Assembly: GCA_016192525.1 (NCBI GenBank)
Contig: JACPTZ010000154.1
Span: forward strand, 4,290 to 68,289
From: Planctomycetota bacterium
GTDB lineage: Bacteria; Planctomycetota; MHYJ01; JACPTZ01
Direction: 5' to 3'
Length of the DNA stretch: 64,000 nucleotides
The position numbers and the translations under genes were made by a program. Below, in pieces: positions 32,309-40,790 of this stretch. The notes below the pieces were generated by a model that was not told where the DNA came from, did no database searches, and saw only the letters and a program-made list of their open reading frames with translations. How positions within the stretch are numbered: position 1 is the stretch's first letter; each line of letters starts with the position of its first letter.

Positions 32309-35300
32309 TCACGCCTCCGCCGCCACCGGTGCCGCCGCGACCTCCGCCTTCTGCATCCCCTTCAACCTCCGGCGCCGCTCCCAGTAGAAGAGCACCGGGA
32401 TGAAGATGTCGATCACCTCGTCCGCGATGAGGATCCCGCCCAGGATCGGGACCGCCATCGGACGCATGTACTCGGCCCCCACGCCGGTCGCCCAGAGCAT
32501 CGGGATCAGCGCGAGGACCGTCGTCCCCTCCGTGAGGAGTTTGGGCCGCAGACGATGCACGGCCCCCTCCATCACCACCTCGCGGATGGTCCCGACCGGG
32601 TCCGGCAGTTTCGCGATCGCCTCCAGGCCGCCGCGACGGTCGACCGCCTCGCGCAGATAGACCAGCATCACGATCGCCGTCTCCGTCGCCAGGCCGAAGC
32701 AGACCACGTATCCCACCCACACGGCCACGCTGATGTTGTACCCCCACATGTACTGGAACAGCGCCCCGCCGGCCACCGCCCCCGGCACGGCGAGGAACAT
32801 CATGAGCGTGTCGGCGAAGTCCTTGTAGGTCATGTAGAGGATGACGAAGATGATGAGGATCACCATCGGGAGGACGATCATGAGCGTCTTCTGCGCCCGC
32901 ACCTGGTGCTCGAACTGGCCGCTCCACTCGAGGTGGAAACCGGGCGGGAGTTTCACCTGCGCATCCACTACGCGCTGGGCCTCCTCGACGAAGCCCACGA
33001 TGTCGCGTTCGCGGACGTTCAACTGCACGTAGGCCCGGAGGAGCCCGTTCTCGCTCTTGATCATGCTCGGCCCAGGGACGATGCGGATGTCCGCGACGAG
33101 CGAAAGGGGGACCTGACGGAGGCGCGACGGGGAGTCCGTGGTCCCGGGTCCAGGGTCCAGGGTCGAGGACGGTGTGACCCGCGCCGCGGAGCGAGCGCCC
33201 ATCCCGCCGCCGCTCGAACCGCCGCCCCTCCCGCCGTTCGTTGACGGGGACGGAGGCGCCTCCATTCCACCGCCGGCCGCGGGGACCAGCAGATTCCCCA
33301 CGCTCTCCTCGTCCTCGCGCCAGTCCCGCGGATAGCGGACGCGCACGGGATACCGTTCGCGCCCCTCGACGGTCATCGTGATGTCCTTTCCGCCGAGGGC
33401 GACCTCGATCACGTCCTGGATCGCCTCCACGCTCACCCCGTAGCGGGCCGCCTTCTCGCGGTTGATGCCGATCTCGAGGTAGTTTTCTCCGACGATCTGG
33501 TCCGGGAAGACGTCCACGGCGCCCCGGATCTGCCTGAGGGCGGCGGCGATCTCGTTCGAGACGGTCTGGATCCTGTCGAGGTGGTCGCCGAACACCTTCA
33601 CCCCGATCATCGTCCGCACGCCGGTGGCGAGCATGTCCACGCGATTGATGATGGGCTGGGTCCAGATGTTCCCCCACCCGGGGACCTGGAGTTCCGAGTC
33701 CATCTCCTTCACGAGGTCGGATTTCAGCTTCGGCCAGAGGAAGATGCGCTGGTGGAACGCCCCCTCGCGCTCGGAACGGATGCCGTGCAGTTCGTCCGCG
33801 GCCGGCTCGCGGGCGAGAAGGCCCTGGGCGCGGGCGACCGCCACGGCCTCGTCGAGGAGGAACCAGACCATAGCGCCCGGCGCCCGGTCCTCGATCTCCC
33901 AGTTCAGTTGCCTGACGCGCTCGACCATCAGCGCGTCCTGTTCCTCCACGAGCCGTTCCTGGATCCGGGCGGCCAGCGTGGGTCTCTCGACGCCGGAGAT
34001 CGTGCGCAGGAGGTCGCGCGCCTCCGACTCGAACGTCTTCGGCTCCGCCAGGAGGTCGGACGCGGCGGCGACAGCCCCCTCGGCGACGAGGAAGTCGACC
34101 ACCTCCTGGACCGCCTCCGCCACCCGTTCGCGGAGGACCCACTCACGGAATTCCGGGGCGTACTTCGCGGTGAGCCGGTCGTCGAACGCGATCCACCGCG
34201 CCGCGGGAATCTCGGACTTCAGGGCGCCCTTCCGGCGTAGAAGTCCCACGACCTCTTCGCGGACGCGCGTCACCAGGGCGCGCCCGGCCATCGGAACGTA
34301 CTCGTGGAAGCGCCGCATCGAGAGATCCCGGTACGCGCGATCGAACTTCACCACCGCCTCCATGGTGGCCGAGTTGGCGATCTCGCCGATGTCGGAGTCG
34401 GGCACCGGTTTCAGTATCCCGCGGCTGACAAGGACGCCCACGGCCCCGCGCGCCTCCGCCAGCGCGTCGTCGTAGTTGATCTTGCGTTTCGGCCACCACG
34501 ACTTCGGCCTGAGGCTCACCACCGTCTCCACCATGTCGATCGGGGAGGGGTCGGTCGGCGTCTCGGCCCGCCCCACCTTGCCGACGACCTGATGGACCTC
34601 GGGGAAGGACCGCAGGACGCGGTCGCGCTCCTTGATGTCGTCTCCGGCCTGGGTGATGTTCACGTTCGGGGTGGTCACGGGCATGTCCATGATCGCCAGT
34701 TCGTCGAGGGGCGGCATAAACTCCTCCCCGAGCGGGGTGAAGGTCCGGTAGGCGGTCGCGGCCACGCAGAAGAGGATCGCGAGGCAGACGATCCTGTGGC
34801 GCGCCACGACCGCGATGGAGGTCGCGACGACGAAGGGAACCGCCACGATGAACACGATCCACGGGAATTTGTGCGGGAAGATCGGCAGGCCGATGAGCAG
34901 GAAGGTCCCCGTGATGACGACGATCACGTCCGGATGCTTGAGGAAGAAGGACAGCATGGGGCGGTAGATGGCGACGAACGAGCGGACCAGCCACACGTCG
35001 TCCTGACCGTGGAGTTTCCCGCGGATGAAGGTGGGGATGAGGGCCGGGACGAGCGTGATCGCCAGCACCGCCACGCCGGCGAGGGCGAAGGTCTTGGTGT
35101 AGGCGAGCGGATTGAACATCTTCCCCTCGATCCCGCCGAGGACGAAGATCGGCGCGAACGAGAGGAGCATGATGAGGATCGAGAAGAAGAGCGGGCCGCC
35201 GACCACCTTGCAGGACTCGATCACGATCTCGCGCGTGTCGCCCGTAACGCGCCCGCCCGGGAAGTGGTCGTGCAGCCGGTGATAGGCGTTTTCCGCCATC

Positions 35301-36514
35301 ACGATCCCGGCGTCGACGAGGACCCCGATCGAGATGGCGATCCCGGAAAGCGACATGATGTTCGAGGGGATCTCCAGATAGTACATGAAGATGAAGGCGA
35401 TCAGCACGGCGAGGGGGAGCGTGACGCAGATGACGATCGCGCTCCGGAAGTGCCAGAGGATGAGCAGGACGACGAGCGTCGCGATCAGGATCTCCTCGAT
35501 CAGGGTGTGCGTCAGGGTGTCGATCGAGGCCTGGATGAGCCCGGTGCGGTCGTAAAAGGGGACGATCCGGACACCCGCCGGGAGGCCGGCCTGGAGTTGA
35601 CCGATCTTCTCCTTGATCCGGCGCGTGACCTCGAGCGGGTTCTCGCCGTAGCGCATCATCACGACCCCGCCCACCGCCTCGCGCCCGTCCTTCTCGAGGA
35701 CGCTGCGGCGGAAGGCCGGGCCGAGCTGCACCGTCGCGATCCGTTCCACGGTGATGGGAACGCCGTTCCGCTCCTCGATCGCGATCTTCTTGATGTCGTC
35801 GACGTCGCGGATCCAGCCGTATCCGCGCACGAGGTACTCCGCGCCGCCCTTGTGGATCACCTTGCCGCCGACGCTCGAATTCGAGGCCATCACGGCCCCG
35901 AAGACCTGCCCGAGGCTGAGGTCGAAGGCGCGCAGTTTCTCCGGGTCCACGTCCACCTGGTATTCGCGCACGAAGCCCCCGACGCTCGAGACCTGCGCCA
36001 CGCCGGGCACGGAGTTGATCGGATACCGCACGTGCCAATCCTGGATCGTGCGCAGTTCGCCGAGACTCCTCCCTTCCCCCTCAACGGTGTACCAGAAGAT
36101 CTGTCCGAGGGCGGTGGCGTCGGGGGCGAGGTACGGCACGACGCCGGGCGGCAGGAAACTCCCGGCGATCGAGAGGCGCTCGAGGACGCGCTGGCGGGCG
36201 AAGTAGAACTCGATGTGCTCGTCGAAGATGATGTTGATCATCGAGAAGCCGAACTCGCTCGTGGCGCGGATCGACTTCACCCCGGCCAGGCCCTGCAGGT
36301 TCACCGAGAGCGGATAGGTCACCTGGTCCTCGATCTCCTGCGGGCTCCGGCCCATCCAGTCGGCCCAGACGATGACCTGGTTCTCCGAGAGGTCCGGGAT
36401 CGCGTCCACCGGCGTGCGGTAGAGGCAGTAGACGCCCCACAGGCTCACCCCCGCGACGAGGATGAACACGATGAACCGGTTGCGGACGGAGAATTCGATG
36501 ATCTTCGGGATCAT
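32309..36514 (-). CDS. cusA: Heavy-metal efflux RND permease (CusA/CzcA family), unusually long at 1401 aa
   Basis: N-terminus MIPKIIEFSVRNRFIVFILVAG, with PDLSENQVIV and GGFVREYQVDVDP. ATG 36514 overlaps the cusB stop (ATGA). Track ORF 32309..37354 over-extends into cusB. Confidence 0.88.
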   Translation of the reverse strand: MIPKIIEFSVRNRFIVFILVAGVSLWGVYCLYRTPVDAIPDLSENQVIVWADWMGRSPQEIEDQVTYPLSVNLQGLAGVKSIRATSEFGFSMINIIFDEHIEFYFARQRVLERLSIAGSFLPPGVVPYLAPDATALGQIFWYTVEGEGRSLGELRTIQDWHVRYPINSVPGVAQVSSVGGFVREYQVDVDPEKLRAFDLSLGQVFGAVMASNSSVGGKVIHKGGAEYLVRGYGWIRDVDDIKKIAIEERNGVPITVERIATVQLGPAFRRSVLEKDGREAVGGVVMMRYGENPLEVTRRIKEKIGQLQAGLPAGVRIVPFYDRTGLIQASIDTLTHTLIEEILIATLVVLLILWHFRSAIVICVTLPLAVLIAFIFMYYLEIPSNIMSLSGIAISIGVLVDAGIVMAENAYHRLHDHFPGGRVTGDTREIVIESCKVVGGPLFFSILIMLLSFAPIFVLGGIEGKMFNPLAYTKTFALAGVAVLAITLVPALIPTFIRGKLHGQDDVWLVRSFVAIYRPMLSFFLKHPDVIVVITGTFLLIGLPIFPHKFPWIVFIVAVPFVVATSIAVVARHRIVCLAILFCVAATAYRTFTPLGEEFMPPLDELAIMDMPVTTPNVNITQAGDDIKERDRVLRSFPEVHQVVGKVGRAETPTDPSPIDMVETVVSLRPKSWWPKRKINYDDALAEARGAVGVLVSRGILKPVPDSDIGEIANSATMEAVVKFDRAYRDLSMRRFHEYVPMAGRALVTRVREEVVGLLRRKGALKSEIPAARWIAFDDRLTAKYAPEFREWVLRERVAEAVQEVVDFLVAEGAVAAASDLLAEPKTFESEARDLLRTISGVERPTLAARIQERLVEEQDALMVERVRQLNWEIEDRAPGAMVWFLLDEAVAVARAQGLLAREPAADELHGIRSEREGAFHQRIFLWPKLKSDLVKEMDSELQVPGWGNIWTQPIINRVDMLATGVRTMIGVKVFGDHLDRIQTVSNEIAAALRQIRGAVDVFPDQIVGENYLEIGINREKAARYGVSVEAIQDVIEVALGGKDITMTVEGRERYPVRVRYPRDWREDEESVGNLLVPAAGGGMEAPPSPSTNGGRGGGSSGGGMGARSAARVTPSSTLDPGPGTTDSPSRLRQVPLSLVADIRIVPGPSMIKSENGLLRAYVQLNVRERDIVGFVEEAQRVVDAQVKLPPGFHLEWSGQFEHQVRAQKTLMIVLPMVILIIFVILYMTYKDFADTLMMFLAVPGAVAGGALFQYMWGYNISVAVWVGYVVCFGLATETAIVMLVYLREAVDRRGGLEAIAKLPDPVGTIREVVMEGAVHRLRPKLLTEGTTVLALIPMLWATGVGAEYMRPMAVPILGGILIADEVIDIFIPVLFYWERRRRLKGMQKAEVAAAPVAAEA

Positions 36515-38580
36515 TTGGACCCCCCGCTCGTCTCTGCTCCGCTCGCGCCGAAGTACTGGGCGCCGGCGGCGGGATTCAGTCGCGCCTCGGCGTCGGGCAG
36601 GAACGATCCGGCCGTCACCGCCCGGTCCCCGGCCGCGAGGCCCTTCAGCACCTGGACGTACTCGCCCGCGCGCGGTCCGAGGACGACCTCGACCGCGTCG
36701 AACGTCCCCTGGCCCTTCTCCAGGTAGACCACCTTCCGCAGCCCATTGTCGATCACCGCCGAGACCGGAACCGCGAGGACCTGCTCGAACTCCATGTGCT
36801 TCGTCGGGCGGGCGCAATCGGGGCACGGACTCGTCGGATCGACCGCGTGGTCCGGGTGGAGCGGACAGATCCACGCGTCCACGAGCCGCTTGCCCGGGCT
36901 CTCGATCTTGTACCGGAGCGCCTTCCCGCACTTCTCGCGCGGGCAGGTCCCGGGCTTGTCGGACCGAACGTCGGGATGCTCGGCGCAGACGTACATGAGA
37001 CGCGAGCCGGGTTCGATCGTGCGCGGTTCGAGTATCATCCCGCCGCACTCCGCGCACTCCCCGGGGATGTCGGAGACCTTCTCCGGGTGCATGTCGCAGA
37101 CGTAGATCGTGCGCGGTTTCTCGACCGACGCCTCCCGCTTCGCCAGCTCCATGTTGCACTTCGGGCAACGGCCGGGCTTGTCGCTCGTCACCTCGGCATG
37201 CATCGGGCACTGGTAGAAGACCTCCTTCGCCGCGGCGGTCGTTCCTCCGTCGGACGGCGCGGGCGCCCCGTCGGCGGTCGCGACCCCCTTCCGCACCAGC
37301 TCCATCCCGCACTTCTCGCAGATGCCCGGCTCGTCCGAGCGCACCTCGGGGCACATCGGGCAGCAGCCGTACCAGACCTCGGCCTCCTTGCCGAGGGGGA
37401 TCCGGAGCGCCGCCGCCACGTACATCCCCGGCTTGAGTTTCCCTCCGGGATTGTCCACGTCCACGCGCACCTTCACCGTGCGGGTCTCGGGATCGAGCGT
37501 GGGCTGGACGAAGGCCACCTTCCCGACGAACGACTCGCCCGGGTACGCCTCCGACGTCACCTCGATCATCTGCCCGATCCGCACAAGGCCGATATCACGC
37601 TCGAAGACCTCCGCCTGCATCCAGACCGCAGTGAGGTCGGCCAGGGTGTAGATTCCCATTCCGGTCTCGACATACTGCCCGGACAGGAGGTGGCGCTGGA
37701 TCACGGTCCCGTCCATCGTGGACAGAAGTTCGAGATGGATCTCCGCCTTGCCGGTCTTCCGCAGATTCTCGATCTGCCCGTCTGTCACGCCCCAGAGGCG
37801 GAGCCGCTCCAGCGATGCGTCGACGAGACGCTGGGCACGATCGACCGCGGCGGGGTTGGCGCCCGGCTTCGACCGGATTTCCTCGAGCGCCTTTAGGCCG
37901 AGCAGGACCTCCTCCTGGGTGGTCACGAGTTCGGGGCTGTAGAGCCAGACGAGCGGCTCGCCCTTCTTGACGGTGGTGCCGGTGAAGTCCACGAAGAGGC
38001 GGTCGATCCGGCCGGGGATACGGGCCGTGACATGGCTGAGGCGGCGCTCGTCGAACGCGATGGAGCCCACGGTGCGGACCTCACGAACAAGGGTGCGATA
38101 TCCCACCTCCTCCGTCGCGAGGCCCGCCTGCCGGATGCGGAAGGGCGAGAGTTGCAGGCGCGAGAGAATGCCGGGATCGAGTTCGGTCTTCTCGCCGCGC
38201 TTGCGCCTCGAGAGAGGCATCCCGCAGATCGGGCACTTCTCGGAGGCGTCCTTCCGGATGACGCTCGGGTGCATCGGACAGAACCACTCGAACTCGCTCT
38301 CGACCAGGTCGGCCCCCTTCTCCGGCCGGGTCCATCGGTCCATCGTGTTCATGATGTAGCCCCAGTTGCCGACGATGAGGCCGACGACGATGAACACGAA
38401 GATGAACCGGAGCCGCACCATCAGGATGTTGAAGATGGAGGCGCTCTCCTCCTGCGGGGGCGGGGGGGGCGTGGCGAGGGGCGAAGCGGGGATCGCGTCC
38501 GCAATGGGGATCTCCTCTGGCGGCTTTGAAGGTGGGCCAGCAGGCCCCGGACCGGGCGATGGGGTAGGGTTGTCTGGCAT
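36511..38580 (-). CDS. cusB: RND periplasmic adaptor (CusB-like MFP) with one N-terminal and five internal HMBD metal-binding modules
   Basis: TM FIFVFIVVGLIVG. HMBD WFCPMHPSVIRKDASEKCPICGM. HlyD/MFP core (VTARIPGRIDRLFVDFTGTTVKKGEPL... LKPGMYV). Then CCPMCPEV..CEKCGM, CPMHAEV..CPKCNM, CDMHPEK..CAECGGM, CAEHPDV..CPREKCG and CPLHPDH..CPDC. Confidence 0.85.
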   Translation of the reverse strand: MPDNPTPSPGPGPAGPPSKPPEEIPIADAIPASPLATPPPPPQEESASIFNILMVRLRFIFVFIVVGLIVGNWGYIMNTMDRWTRPEKGADLVESEFEWFCPMHPSVIRKDASEKCPICGMPLSRRKRGEKTELDPGILSRLQLSPFRIRQAGLATEEVGYRTLVREVRTVGSIAFDERRLSHVTARIPGRIDRLFVDFTGTTVKKGEPLVWLYSPELVTTQEEVLLGLKALEEIRSKPGANPAAVDRAQRLVDASLERLRLWGVTDGQIENLRKTGKAEIHLELLSTMDGTVIQRHLLSGQYVETGMGIYTLADLTAVWMQAEVFERDIGLVRIGQMIEVTSEAYPGESFVGKVAFVQPTLDPETRTVKVRVDVDNPGGKLKPGMYVAAALRIPLGKEAEVWYGCCPMCPEVRSDEPGICEKCGMELVRKGVATADGAPAPSDGGTTAAAKEVFYQCPMHAEVTSDKPGRCPKCNMELAKREASVEKPRTIYVCDMHPEKVSDIPGECAECGGMILEPRTIEPGSRLMYVCAEHPDVRSDKPGTCPREKCGKALRYKIESPGKRLVDAWICPLHPDHAVDPTSPCPDCARPTKHMEFEQVLAVPVSAVIDNGLRKVVYLEKGQGTFDAVEVVLGPRAGEYVQVLKGLAAGDRAVTAGSFLPDAEARLNPAAGAQYFGASGAETSGGSK

Positions 38581-38618
38581 AGTGGATCTCCTGGTTACTG
38601 ACGCGGTCTCAGCCCGTT

Positions 38619-38808
38619 CTTAGAGCGCCTATCAAAATGACCGCCGTGGCATGTCATCCTGAGGCTGCCCCGCAGCACGTGTGCGGGGCCGAAGGATCAC
38701 CAGCCTGGAACCGGCTTGAATGCTGAGCTGGTGATCCTTCGCTTCGCCCGCCAAACGGCGGCGGGCGAAGCTCAGGATGACAACTTCATTCTGATAGGCG
38801 CTCTCAAG
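38619..38808. repeat. Nested-palindrome element with 19-bp terminal inverted repeats
   Basis: agagcgcctatcaaaatga (38622-38640) and tcattctgataggcgctct (38786-38804), 18/19 matching. Inner stems gtcatcctgagg/ctcaggatgac, gaaggatcaccagc/gctggtgatccttc and ccccgcagcacgtgtgcgggg. Confidence 0.7.
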
Positions 38809-38825
38809 CACCGTACTTCTGCCGC

Positions 38826-40310
38826 CTACTTCGAGTCTCCTTCCAGACTCCGCCCCACGGCGCGCTCGAGATCGGCCAGCGCCGTGGCGTGATCGGCCAG
38901 GACGCGGTACCGCCGCAGACGCACATCGCGGAGCGAGCGTTCGGCGTCGAGGAGATCGAGGAACATCGAGCGGCCGTTCTCGTAGTTCACGCGCGTCACC
39001 TCGACCGCCTGCTCCGTCTTGGGCAGAAGCTCACCGTCAAAGATCTTGAGCGAACGCGCGGCGGCATCGACCCGCAGAAGCGCGTCCCTCACCTCGGCCT
39101 GAACACGGGTCCTCAGGCCCTCGACCGCGAGTTCATCCGCCCGGACCACCTGTTTCATCCGGCGGACCTCCGAGGTGAAGCGGTCGGTGAGCCACGGCAG
39201 CGTGATCCCGATCATCCCGCTCCAGGCGTCCTCCTCGTACGGCATCTGGACGTACTTCGCCTCGAACATGAACATCGGGGAGCGGGTCTCCTTCTCGGCG
39301 AGACGGAGCATGACGCGCGACGCCTCGAGGCGGAGCCCGGCCGCCCGGATCTCCGGCCGGACCTCCATGGCCTCCCGGGCGAGGGCGGCGCCGTCGAATT
39401 CCCCCGGGGGAACGGTGACCTCGGCGGGCGGACCCAGCGGAGCCCCGGCCGGACGGTTCAGAAGGGCGTTGATCTCGGCCCGGGCCGATCCGATCCGCTG
39501 GTCGAGGGCGAGAATCTGATTCTGAAGCTCCACCAGTTCGACTTGCGGCTTGAGCACGTCCTGCTGCGGGGCGGCGCCGGTGCGGAACCGGGAGTCGGCG
39601 ATCCGTTCGAACTCCGAGAGCAGATCGATGTGCTGTCGCACGATCTCCAGCTCGCGGGTGGCCATGTAGTACATGGAGAGCGCCCGCCTCGCCCTCGCGG
39701 CGGTGTCGCGCACTTCCATGGCGTACATCTCGACCATCGACTCCGCGTCGCGGGAAGCCGCCTCCGCGCGAAGGCCGCGGATTCCCGGAAAGGGCACCGA
39801 CTGCTGGAGTCCGAGCATGTTGCCGCGATTCGTGCCCAGCGAGAAGGGGCGCCCGCGGGGAATCTCCTCGGCCTCGAACTTGAGGAGCGGAGGATCGTAA
39901 GACCCCGCGACATCGATGGACGCGCTCGCCGCCTCAGCCCGGGCGACGGCCTCGCGGAGCCGCGGATGGCGCTCAACGGCGAGGCGGGCAACGAGCTCCG
40001 GATCGAGCGGCCCGGCCAGGAGGCGGTCGAGATCCGGGTCGGTGGCGGGGCCGGGGACGGCGGCGGCGTGCCGGGCTTGGAGATCGGCGAGGGTGGTCGC
40101 GAGCGGGGCCAGATCGGCGCGACGGGCGGCGGTGCTGCAGCCCGCGAGCACGCTCATGAGGAACACCGCCGCGCATCGGCGGACGCGGTGTCCGGCGCAG
40201 CCACCGTCATCTTGTCCTCTTCGCGAATGCGAGGAGGGGGAAGGGAGAGAGTCCCTTTGGACTTTGGCGGTAATCATGGTCGTCTCCGGAAAGAGGCAAA
40301 GCCGAATCAC
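38826..40310 (-). CDS. Outer-membrane efflux protein (TolC/CusC family)
   Basis: Lipobox-like SVLAGCSTA. Two OEP-type repeats with coiled segments. Position upstream of cusBA. The start is uncertain (40310 or 40277). Confidence 0.8.
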   Translation of the reverse strand: MIRLCLFPETTMITAKVQRDSLPSPSSHSRRGQDDGGCAGHRVRRCAAVFLMSVLAGCSTAARRADLAPLATTLADLQARHAAAVPGPATDPDLDRLLAGPLDPELVARLAVERHPRLREAVARAEAASASIDVAGSYDPPLLKFEAEEIPRGRPFSLGTNRGNMLGLQQSVPFPGIRGLRAEAASRDAESMVEMYAMEVRDTAARARRALSMYYMATRELEIVRQHIDLLSEFERIADSRFRTGAAPQQDVLKPQVELVELQNQILALDQRIGSARAEINALLNRPAGAPLGPPAEVTVPPGEFDGAALAREAMEVRPEIRAAGLRLEASRVMLRLAEKETRSPMFMFEAKYVQMPYEEDAWSGMIGITLPWLTDRFTSEVRRMKQVVRADELAVEGLRTRVQAEVRDALLRVDAAARSLKIFDGELLPKTEQAVEVTRVNYENGRSMFLDLLDAERSLRDVRLRRYRVLADHATALADLERAVGRSLEGDSK

Positions 40311-40358: not shown

Positions 40359-40790
40359 TCAGAGTCTGAGATTGGCGATTCGGAGGAAGAGCGGCGGGCC
40401 GGTGTCGGGCGGGCTCTCCGTGGCGACGACGGGGACCGGCCGGACGCCCGGATCCGGCAGCAGTCCGGTCAGAAACACCGGACACGGCGCGAGCGGGGCG
40501 AGGGCGGCGGCGTCCGCCGGCGGAAGAACGTCCCGCTGCGGCTGGATGTGCTGACAGTTCTTCGAGGGGGTGTGCTTCGCGTGCTTCTCTTCCGACGGCG
40601 CCGGCTGCTGGTGCTTGCAGCAGGACTTCTTCTCCGGCGCCGGCTTCGGCGTGACGGCCCGCTCACCCGGGCAGGAGGGGCACTCCCCCGGCTTCGGGCA
40701 GGTCATCCCGCAGAGACAATCGGTCCAGCGCGCGGTCTGCGCGACACCGATCAGGATCGCCAGGAGCAGGGAGCCGAAACGCATGCGCAC
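40359..40790 (-). CDS. Secreted Cys/His-rich small protein, first gene of the cus-like operon
   Basis: Signal peptide MRMRFGSLLLAILIGVAQTA. DCLCGMTCPKPGECPSCPGE, SCCKHQQ and HAKHTPSKNCQH. 143 aa. Confidence 0.5.
   Translation of the reverse strand: MRMRFGSLLLAILIGVAQTARWTDCLCGMTCPKPGECPSCPGERAVTPKPAPEKKSCCKHQQPAPSEEKHAKHTPSKNCQHIQPQRDVLPPADAAALAPLAPCPVFLTGLLPDPGVRPVPVVATESPPDTGPPLFLRIANLRL

Follow-up and report, generated by a model that had tools for sequence, protein, structure and literature searches.

How copper and silver reach the CusA-type efflux pump is debated: delivery by the chaperone CusF is set against activation by the adaptor CusB, and the role of the N-terminal metal site of CusB is part of the same dispute. 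A locus of a Planctomycetota bacterium (assembly GCA_016192525.1, contig JACPTZ010000154.1, positions 4,290 to 68,289 of the forward strand; this whole stretch of 64,000 nucleotides is the window referred to below) puts the question in an unfamiliar form. It encodes a CusB-like periplasmic adaptor with six heavy-metal-binding domain (HMBD) modules, one near the N-terminus and five in tandem inside the protein. The array was first noticed in a reading of the DNA letters made without database searches (the sequence-only reading). Why should the adaptor of a metal pump contain five further metal-binding modules, and are they a local accident or an established part of the machine?

Six HMBD modules in one adaptor

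The adaptor gene and its modules are as follows, with each module's ligand positions in brackets and its position class, where assigned, given as a letter.

36511..38580, minus strand: periplasmic adaptor (membrane fusion protein, MFP) gene, 689 residues, six HMBD modules; single uninterrupted open reading frame (ORF), supported by Pfam, TIGR01730 and AlphaFold2 (AF2)
38218..38280, minus strand: HMBD module 1, N-terminal (C101 M103 H104 C116 C119 M121); Pfam HMBD, E 1e-9
37303..37365, minus strand: module 2, class A (C406 C407 M409 C410 C421 C424 M426); Pfam HMBD, E 2e-11
37150..37209, minus strand: module 3, class B, canonical (C458 M460 H461 C472 C475 M477); Pfam HMBD, E 3e-16
37036..37098, minus strand: module 4, class C (C495 M497 H498 C509 C512 M515); Pfam HMBD, E 1.5e-8
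36922..36987, minus strand: module 5, class D (C532 E534 H535 C546 C551 K553); Pfam HMBD, E 2e-8
36802..36867, minus strand: module 6, class E (C572 L574 H575 C586 C589 T593); orthologues and profile-profile comparison

Located by regular expression and checked by coordinate, the six cysteine modules occupy residues 101-119, 406-424, 458-475, 495-512, 532-551 and 572-589, and 20 of the adaptor's 20 cysteines fall within them. Pfam HMBD (PF19335) matches the whole protein with an E-value of 1.4e-43 over 5 stretches. Scanned one at a time against a gathering threshold of 23.6 bits, modules 1-5 score 38.6, 44.1, 59.5, 34.9 and 34.5 bits, all above threshold, and module 3 also matches the LpCopA metal-binding domain entries 8ovl and 3rfu by sequence (E 2.5e-5). 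Module 6 (CPLHPDHAVDPTSPCPDCAR) gives no Pfam match when scanned alone. Because 15 of 20 of its orthologues match HMBD at E<=0.01, and because its class profile matches the N-terminal module profile in hhalign with a probability of 97.5% (E 7.9e-12), module 6 is classed by profile comparison as a divergent HMBD. The sequence-only reading had counted six modules, five of them internal, and the regular expression and Pfam bear it out: its residues 402-598 correspond exactly to nucleotides 36787-37377, and its interval for the N-terminal module (38212-38292) encloses the one found here. The HMM (hidden Markov model) scan for HMBD copies that it suggested recovers modules 1-5 singly against PF19335, and module 6 is reached by way of its orthologues and hhalign.

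The ligands can be read against the N-terminal domain of LpCopA, whose nuclear magnetic resonance (NMR) structure (PDB 8ovl) is a three-stranded rubredoxin-knuckle with a fold resembling the SilB N-terminal site (PMC11970713). There, Ag+ and Cu+ are bound by M44 (the Met of CPMHP), C59 (the second Cys of CxxC) and M61 (the Met of CGM), and C42, H45, C56 and C59 occupy positions at which related folds have their zinc sites (PMC11970713). All six modules keep the Cys/His tetrad corresponding to C42/H45/C56/C59, with two modifications: module 2 has Cys in place of the usual His, plus one additional Cys, and module 5, which reads CPREKCGK, has its Cys pair in a CxxxxC spacing. Modules 1, 2 and 3 preserve the complete Met-Cys-Met triad; in module 4 it is shifted, the sequence CGGM carrying the second Met one position further on than usual. 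The triad is absent from modules 5 and 6, both Met positions being occupied by other residues (E and K in module 5, L and R in module 6). This pattern argues against five equivalent internal sites, and pairwise identity among the six modules is only 19-48%.

An insertion at the hinge of a CusB-like scaffold

The remainder of the adaptor is divided as follows, MPD denoting the membrane-proximal domain.

38329..38448, minus strand: N-terminal membrane anchor helix, residues 45-84; AF2 helices H45-71 and H73-84, hydrophobic stretch RLRFIFVFIVVGLIVGNW
37417..38163, minus strand: CusB-like core, residues 140-388, comprising the first MPD strand, beta-barrel, lipoyl domain and alpha-hairpin; phmmer against CusB 3ne5_B residues 80-313, and HlyD_D23
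36787..37416, minus strand: insertion with the five internal HMBD modules, about 210 residues, residues 389-598; gap between the two CusB-aligned blocks
36565..36786, minus strand: C-terminal part of the MPD, residues 599-672; alignment with CusB 322-394 and with residues 94-175 of SilB 5a4g

The host protein is readily recognised as an adaptor. Pfam HlyD_D23 spans residues 164-388 (E 9e-75), TIGR01730 (RND_mfp) is passed with 119.2 bits against a cutoff of 94.9, and phmmer aligns the protein with CusB at E 1.8e-25. An AF2 model built from a 120-sequence alignment has a mean pLDDT of 87.6 and a pTM of 0.74, and its best Foldseek match is CusB in the CusBA complex (3ne5_C; TM-score 0.81, normalised to CusB). 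The NCBIfam CusB equivalog NF007303 is not reached (135 bits vs a cutoff of 390), and on these sequence scores the adaptor is a CusB-like relative and no CusB orthologue by the NCBI criterion. The standard four-domain scaffold of MPD, beta-barrel, lipoyl domain and alpha-hairpin is intact. According to the model, the N-terminal helix (residues 45-84) holds the adaptor in the inner membrane, preceded by a Pro-rich tail (residues 1-44) that is predicted to be disordered (AF2 pLDDT <60).

Into this scaffold the array is inserted at one well-defined point. In phmmer comparisons with PDB sequences, CusB residues 80-313 align to adaptor residues 140-388 and CusB 322-394 to residues 599-671, and the SilB N-MBD+MPD construct 5a4g aligns with residues 601-682. 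Some 210 residues (389-598) therefore stand where CusB has about 8 to link the last strand of the beta-barrel with the C-terminal half of the MPD. A 430-residue homologue that has no insertion (P0076) joins '...RIPIG' straight to 'EVLAVP...' at the same place. The CusB 313/322 junction and this homologue agree with the earlier placement of the array between the beta-barrel and the membrane-proximal domain.

Structure prediction, which the sequence-only reading had also proposed, gives a confident result. The array reaches pLDDT 92-97 in the full-length model, except for a linker at residues 436-452. Modelled separately, the insert has a pLDDT of 86.9 and a pTM of 0.53, with the modules above 90, and its best PDB match is again the LpCopA HMBD (8ovl; TM-score 0.78, root-mean-square deviation 2.4 Å, 41% identity). 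The modules are thus predicted to adopt the three-stranded rubredoxin-knuckle fold. No structural homologue of the whole array was found in the PDB, the match to 8ovl being to a single module.

An old, position-differentiated array shared by uncultured relatives

At E<=1e-10, the search for homologues found 5241 proteins. For the best 120 clusters, mostly proteins of 430-860 residues from Planctomycetota metagenome-assembled genomes (MAGs), internal modules at this junction were counted with a module HMM built from the clusters themselves. Of the 120, 113 have at least one internal module and 72 at least three; clusters with zero to seven modules number 7, 29, 12, 21, 31, 8, 7 and 5, respectively. 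Of 80 loci taken from GTDB species representatives, 24 encode one or more internal modules and 10 encode two or more. Carriers include uncultured Planctomycetia with six modules (L001) or four (L002 and L003), a Candidatus Brocadia sp. with five internal and two N-terminal modules (L006) and Candidatus Wallbacteria (L009 and L013). The internal array is a subfamily trait common to many uncultured Planctomycetota relatives and no one-off. The records from isolates in this set (Singulisphaera sp. GP187, Gemmata sp. IIL30 and Tundrisphaera sp. TA3) have the N-terminal module only, which may explain why the array has not been studied.

In the sequence-only reading, no internal five-fold array was known. 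As regards the literature searched this stands: full-text searches and reviews yielded nothing on internal HMBD arrays in adaptors, let alone a characterisation, and extra domains in heavy-metal adaptors have been described at the N- and C-termini only (PMC4446572). Among homologues such arrays are nevertheless common, on the counts above. Domain, scaffold and pump type were each known before; the architecture is common in metagenomes but uncharacterised.

The modules are not recent copies of one another. Tandem Repeats Finder, run over 36500-38600, finds only three short two-copy repeats of 8-12 nucleotides, none fitting the module array. In the alignments the internal modules fall into orthologous classes by position, A-B-C-D-E, whose ligand signatures are kept across dozens of homologues. 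In the N-terminal module the six ligand positions are essentially invariant (116-119 of 120 homologues). Class A retains the signature CCxxC...CxxCxM in 55-61 homologues. Class B, with the canonical CPMH...CPxCxM, is an optional expansion and can be aligned in just some 20 of 120. Class C reads YVCxMHPE...CxGM, so that CxGM is the family consensus at the position where module 4 departs from the usual spacing. Class D orthologues mostly show C..H..CPKDGK, or CPKCG.. with the Cys at its canonical position, and the second Cys is often Asp or Glu. Class E (WxCPxHP...CPxCGxxMK) replaces the first Met by Leu, Ile or Val and is aligned in 96-97 of 120 homologues; T593 of the window adaptor is a local exception at a site where 65 of 97 homologues have Met. 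A recent tandem duplication is rejected on three grounds: the lack of a fitting DNA repeat, the low identity between modules and the existence of position-specific orthologues.

The array is under selection, with a distinct conserved signature at each position. The alignments indicate that it is ancient and position-differentiated, with no progressive decay, and the loss of ligands along it reads as a conserved division of labour. The earlier description of a progressive degeneration of ligands therefore has to be replaced, because the pattern is family-wide and specific to position.

Similar arrays occur well beyond this adaptor family. A search with the insert alone across 1.84 billion representative proteins gave 4729 matches at E<=1e-3 and 850 at E<=1e-10. 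Local HMMs classified 149 of the top 150 (P0032 was already among the 120 homologues). Adaptors with internal, N-terminal or C-terminal arrays account for 29 of these 149; the other 120 are non-adaptors of 74-938 residues, mostly 130-300 residues long with two to five modules. A Pfam scan of ten non-adaptors found five with HMBD arrays fused to a NuoD-like Complex1_49kDa domain, one of those together with YHS, and one with an array fused to a NuoJ-like domain (Oxidored_q3). On these classifications, tandem HMBD arrays are a common modular theme.

Within this wider set, four adaptors carry C-terminal arrays after the MPD (P0134, P0167, P0219 and P0266) and three carry N-terminal arrays before the core (P0145, P0239 and P0269). 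Stand-alone proteins of 130-300 residues with two to five modules are many (e.g. P0141). The respiratory-complex fusions (P0124, P0125, P0132, P0142, P0150 and P0170) contain three to seven HMBD modules, an unexpected context for a heavy-metal module. These metagenomic proteins repeat the same module 2-7 times, as the window adaptor does, but in other hosts or at other positions. The literature searched contains no description of the stand-alone, N- or C-terminal-array or NuoD-like forms.

A copper/silver-type partner pump

Two further genes complete the operon, whose order is outer-membrane factor (OMF), MFP adaptor and then RND transporter, all on the minus strand.

38826..40310, minus strand: outer-membrane factor (TolC/CusC-like) gene, upstream of the adaptor; Pfam OEP, E 1.4e-36, two stretches
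32309..36514, minus strand: CusA-type RND transporter gene, 1401 residues; CusA/CzcA model TIGR00914, 983.7 bits against a cutoff of 701.45

At 36511-36514 the sequence ATGA contains both the stop codon of the adaptor and the start codon of the RND gene, an overlap that implies translational coupling of the two. By phmmer, the transporter matches CusA at E 8e-235 and ZneA at 1e-150. In the alignment to 3t51_A, the numbering of which was checked by hand, Met is found at all three positions of the CusA triad M573/M623/M672. A CusA-like RND protein with the Met triad, encoded with an upstream OMF, identifies the pump from its sequence as a CusCBA-type tripartite Cu(I)/Ag(I) efflux system. A Czc-type (Zn/Cd/Co) pump is disfavoured, the match to CusA being far above that to ZneA and the CusA Met triad being kept.

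The transporter has unusual features of its own. It is 1401 residues long against about 1047 in E. coli CusA, and its largest addition is a 258-residue insertion at residues 676-932, which falls in the periplasmic part, between residues 644 and 651 of CusA. There are also an insertion of about 50 hydrophobic residues at 539-588 and a low-complexity one rich in Gly, Ser and Pro at 1076-1132. The 258-residue insertion is found in nearly all Planctomycetota partner pumps among the 80 loci (L001-L080), whatever the number of modules in the adaptor; the Brocadia loci L006, L017 and L038 do not have it. Docking of the array on this insertion as an obligate link is rejected, because the two do not co-vary and L006 combines seven modules, five of them internal, with a pump that has no insertion.

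Proposed capture of metal at the pump and its alternatives

Given the identity, position and conservation of the modules and the Cu/Ag type of the pump they accompany, what do they do? Metal binding by the array, transfer of the metal and its stoichiometry are argued here by analogy with characterised relatives. We would give an even chance to a pump-tethered capture of Cu(I)/Ag(I), in which the array would pass the metal to the N-terminal site, or act together with that site, and in which the Met-less modules would have structural or docking roles. A cassette of some 210 residues, with five modules of predicted rubredoxin-knuckle fold, is spliced into the hinge between the beta-barrel and the MPD. 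As judged from the known CusBA structure, this hinge would lie beside the exit point of the N-terminal HMBD and at the height of the periplasmic cleft of CusA, and a hexameric adaptor would surround each pump with about 36 Cys/Met-rich modules. It is this position, beside the N-terminal site and level with the cleft, that makes it most likely that the Met-bearing modules capture metal and pass it on. The triad-bearing modules (the N-terminal one, 2, 3 and probably 4) would take up periplasmic Cu(I)/Ag(I) and either hand it on to the invariant N-terminal site, which loads or activates CusA, or work cooperatively with that site. The CusA-activation part of this mechanism draws on the general model of CusB activation. 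Modules 5 and 6 would most likely be metal-stabilised structural or docking knuckles that use the Cys/His tetrad only.

So built, the array would be a tethered counterpart of the CusF chaperone. Metal exchange between CusF and CusB and a chaperone domain fused to SilB are both documented (PMC4446572). Neither a CusF-like gene nor a fused CusF-like domain was detected in the window by tblastn, phmmer or an iterated HMM, using a CusF query sequence; beyond three rounds the HMM drifted onto the adaptor MPD, and those matches were discarded. Among the 80 loci, CusF-like domains occur only where there are no internal modules (6 of 56 vs 0 of 24), as a separate gene just after the adaptor in L048, L053, L057, L061 and L072 and fused to the adaptor C-terminus in L058. 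Replacement of CusF by the array would fit this trend, which we keep as a weak hint.

Several considerations weigh against capture at the pump. The complementarity between CusF and the array is not significant over the 80 loci (one-sided Fisher p = 0.11), and most relatives that do not have the array do not have CusF either. Across the family, the first Met of class A is usually Ala, Gly or Ser, and the Met positions of classes D and E are mostly occupied by other residues, and Cu(I) binding of the LpCopA kind may therefore be beyond much of the array. The study of LpCopA itself preferred sensing or regulation over metal delivery (PMC11970713). Exposed periplasmic cysteines could be open to oxidation, or could hold only structural zinc. 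The proximity of the array to the CusA cleft is taken from the known CusBA structure, and the literature searched offers no experiment on any internal HMBD array.

The loss of Met ligands in particular invites a structural explanation. The modules could form a collar of metal-stabilised (e.g. Zn) knuckles with an architectural job only, bracing neighbouring protomers, stiffening the barrel/MPD hinge or contacting other envelope components, without handling the transported metal. Every module has the tetrad that matches the zinc sites of related folds, but not every module has the Met triad; class E, retained more widely than any other internal class, has no canonical Met ligands; and AF2 is very confident for modules 3-6 within the full-length model. 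A purely architectural role is nonetheless hard to square with a copy number that ranges from 0 to 7 at one site. Elsewhere the HMBD is associated with soft-metal proteins (P1B ATPases and Cu/Ag adaptors, for example), the class B and class C modules do retain Met-Cys-Met, the insert modelled by itself has a modest pTM and a disordered linker, and there is no co-variation between the array and the large RND insertion. Taken together, we consider a solely structural role unlikely, although it deserves to be kept in view.

Less probable again, in our view, is that the array is a gate rather than a route: a multi-site copper sensor that switches the adaptor or pump from a resting to an active state at a graded or cooperative threshold, with no delivery of cargo. 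A sensing or autoregulatory role has been assigned to the LpCopA HMBD, and the N-MBD of SilB has been proposed as a sensor (PMC11970713). The insertion also falls at a known flexible hinge of the adaptor, the CusB 313/322 junction. However, every family member, with or without an array, already has such a site in its invariant N-terminal module, and no computed result separates sensing from delivery.

We regard it as very doubtful that the array is simply a periplasmic sponge that sequesters excess soft metal (Cu, Ag and perhaps Hg, Cd or Zn) at the pump without passing it on in any directed way. There would be many thiolate and thioether sites per pump, and stand-alone multi-HMBD proteins of 130-300 residues are abundant, but the capacity of such a store would be bounded by pump copy number, the array is invariably joined to a transporter subunit, at a single exact position, and the conserved, position-specific order and signatures of the modules point to distinct roles. 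Chance, misassembly or misannotation can safely be set aside, as the gene is a single uninterrupted ORF, the per-module Pfam E-values run from 1e-8 to 3e-16 and the same architecture recurs in more than 100 independent homologue clusters.

Relation to known systems

The closest characterised relative is E. coli CusB, the adaptor of CusCFBA (PDB 3ne5 and 3h94), which shares with the window adaptor the four-domain scaffold and the same operon logic around a Met-triad CusA-type RND protein. Both have an N-terminal metal site just before the first MPD strand, but in CusB it is one Cys-free (Met3) site, whereas the window adaptor has a Cys/His/Met HMBD there. They differ most at the barrel/MPD junction, where CusB has about 8 residues and the window adaptor about 210 with five extra modules. 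Unlike CusB, the window adaptor is anchored by a transmembrane helix and has no detected CusF gene. In a weak alignment (E ~0.03-0.3), CusB residues 27-76, which contain the Met site 'FWYDPMYPNTRFDKPGKSPFMDMDL', match module 3 (residues 452-486), with CusB M49, M64 and M66 at the Met, second-Cys and Met positions of the HMBD. This suggests that the CusB N-terminal site could be a Cys-free derivative of the HMBD.

SilB of Cupriavidus metallidurans CH34 (PDB 5a4g) is likewise a heavy-metal adaptor with extra metal-binding domains, and its MPD aligns to residues 601-682 of the window adaptor. Its extra domain is a single CusF-like beta-barrel at the C-terminus, in contrast to five internal HMBD knuckles. 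The LpCopA HMBD belongs to the same domain family (PF19335) as the window modules and shares their predicted fold and CPMHP...CxxCGM ligand framework. LpCopA, however, has one cytoplasmic HMBD on a P1B ATPase with an autoinhibitory tail, whereas the window adaptor would present six periplasmic copies, two of them without Met ligands. The six HMA domains of ATP7A/ATP7B offer a works-like analogy only: they too are serial soft-metal modules on a copper exporter, with regulatory and delivery roles that are non-equivalent, but they have an unrelated ferredoxin-like fold and are cytoplasmic, N-terminal and eukaryotic.

Other features of the operon

The 245 nucleotides between the OMF and adaptor genes (38581-38825) contain nested inverted repeats. 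The outer arms, of 19 nucleotides, lie at 38622-38640 and 38786-38804 and are 95% complementary, a motif that occurs nowhere else in the window; the inner arms (38690-38704 and 38727-38741) are perfect over 15 nucleotides. Rfam gives no match for this region.

Directly upstream of the OMF gene, an ORF of 143 residues (40359-40790, minus strand) combines a signal-peptide-like N-terminus with Cys clusters (CLCGMTCPKPGECPSCPG...SCCKH). Neither Pfam nor NCBIfam gives it a match, and one homologue occupies the same operon position in locus L002. Its product could be a candidate extra periplasmic metal-binding component.

Implications

A more ambitious form of the capture proposal would treat the A-(B)n-C-D-E hinge array as a relay or threshold switch for Cu(I), intramolecular and with multiple sites in a set order, that takes the place of soluble CusF, a possibility that we put forward tentatively, as falling well short of probable. 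If it were true, the Cu-competent modules would feed the invariant N-terminal site, and the Met-less ones would dock on CusA or on neighbouring protomers. Variation in copy number from 0 to 7 would then tune capture capacity or activation threshold to habitat.

The value of the finding is that it points to an unstudied but common architecture; it is no new kind of system. The HMBD knuckle emerges as a widely reused repeat module, in adaptors, in stand-alone proteins and in NuoD-like fusions, with a biology that is essentially unexplored. More specifically, the subfamily represents a natural experiment in which up to seven sites of the same kind are carried on an adaptor with conserved, non-equivalent ligand sets. 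The modules can be individually deleted, swapped or mutated, making capture, transfer, sensing and structural roles separable in these adaptors.

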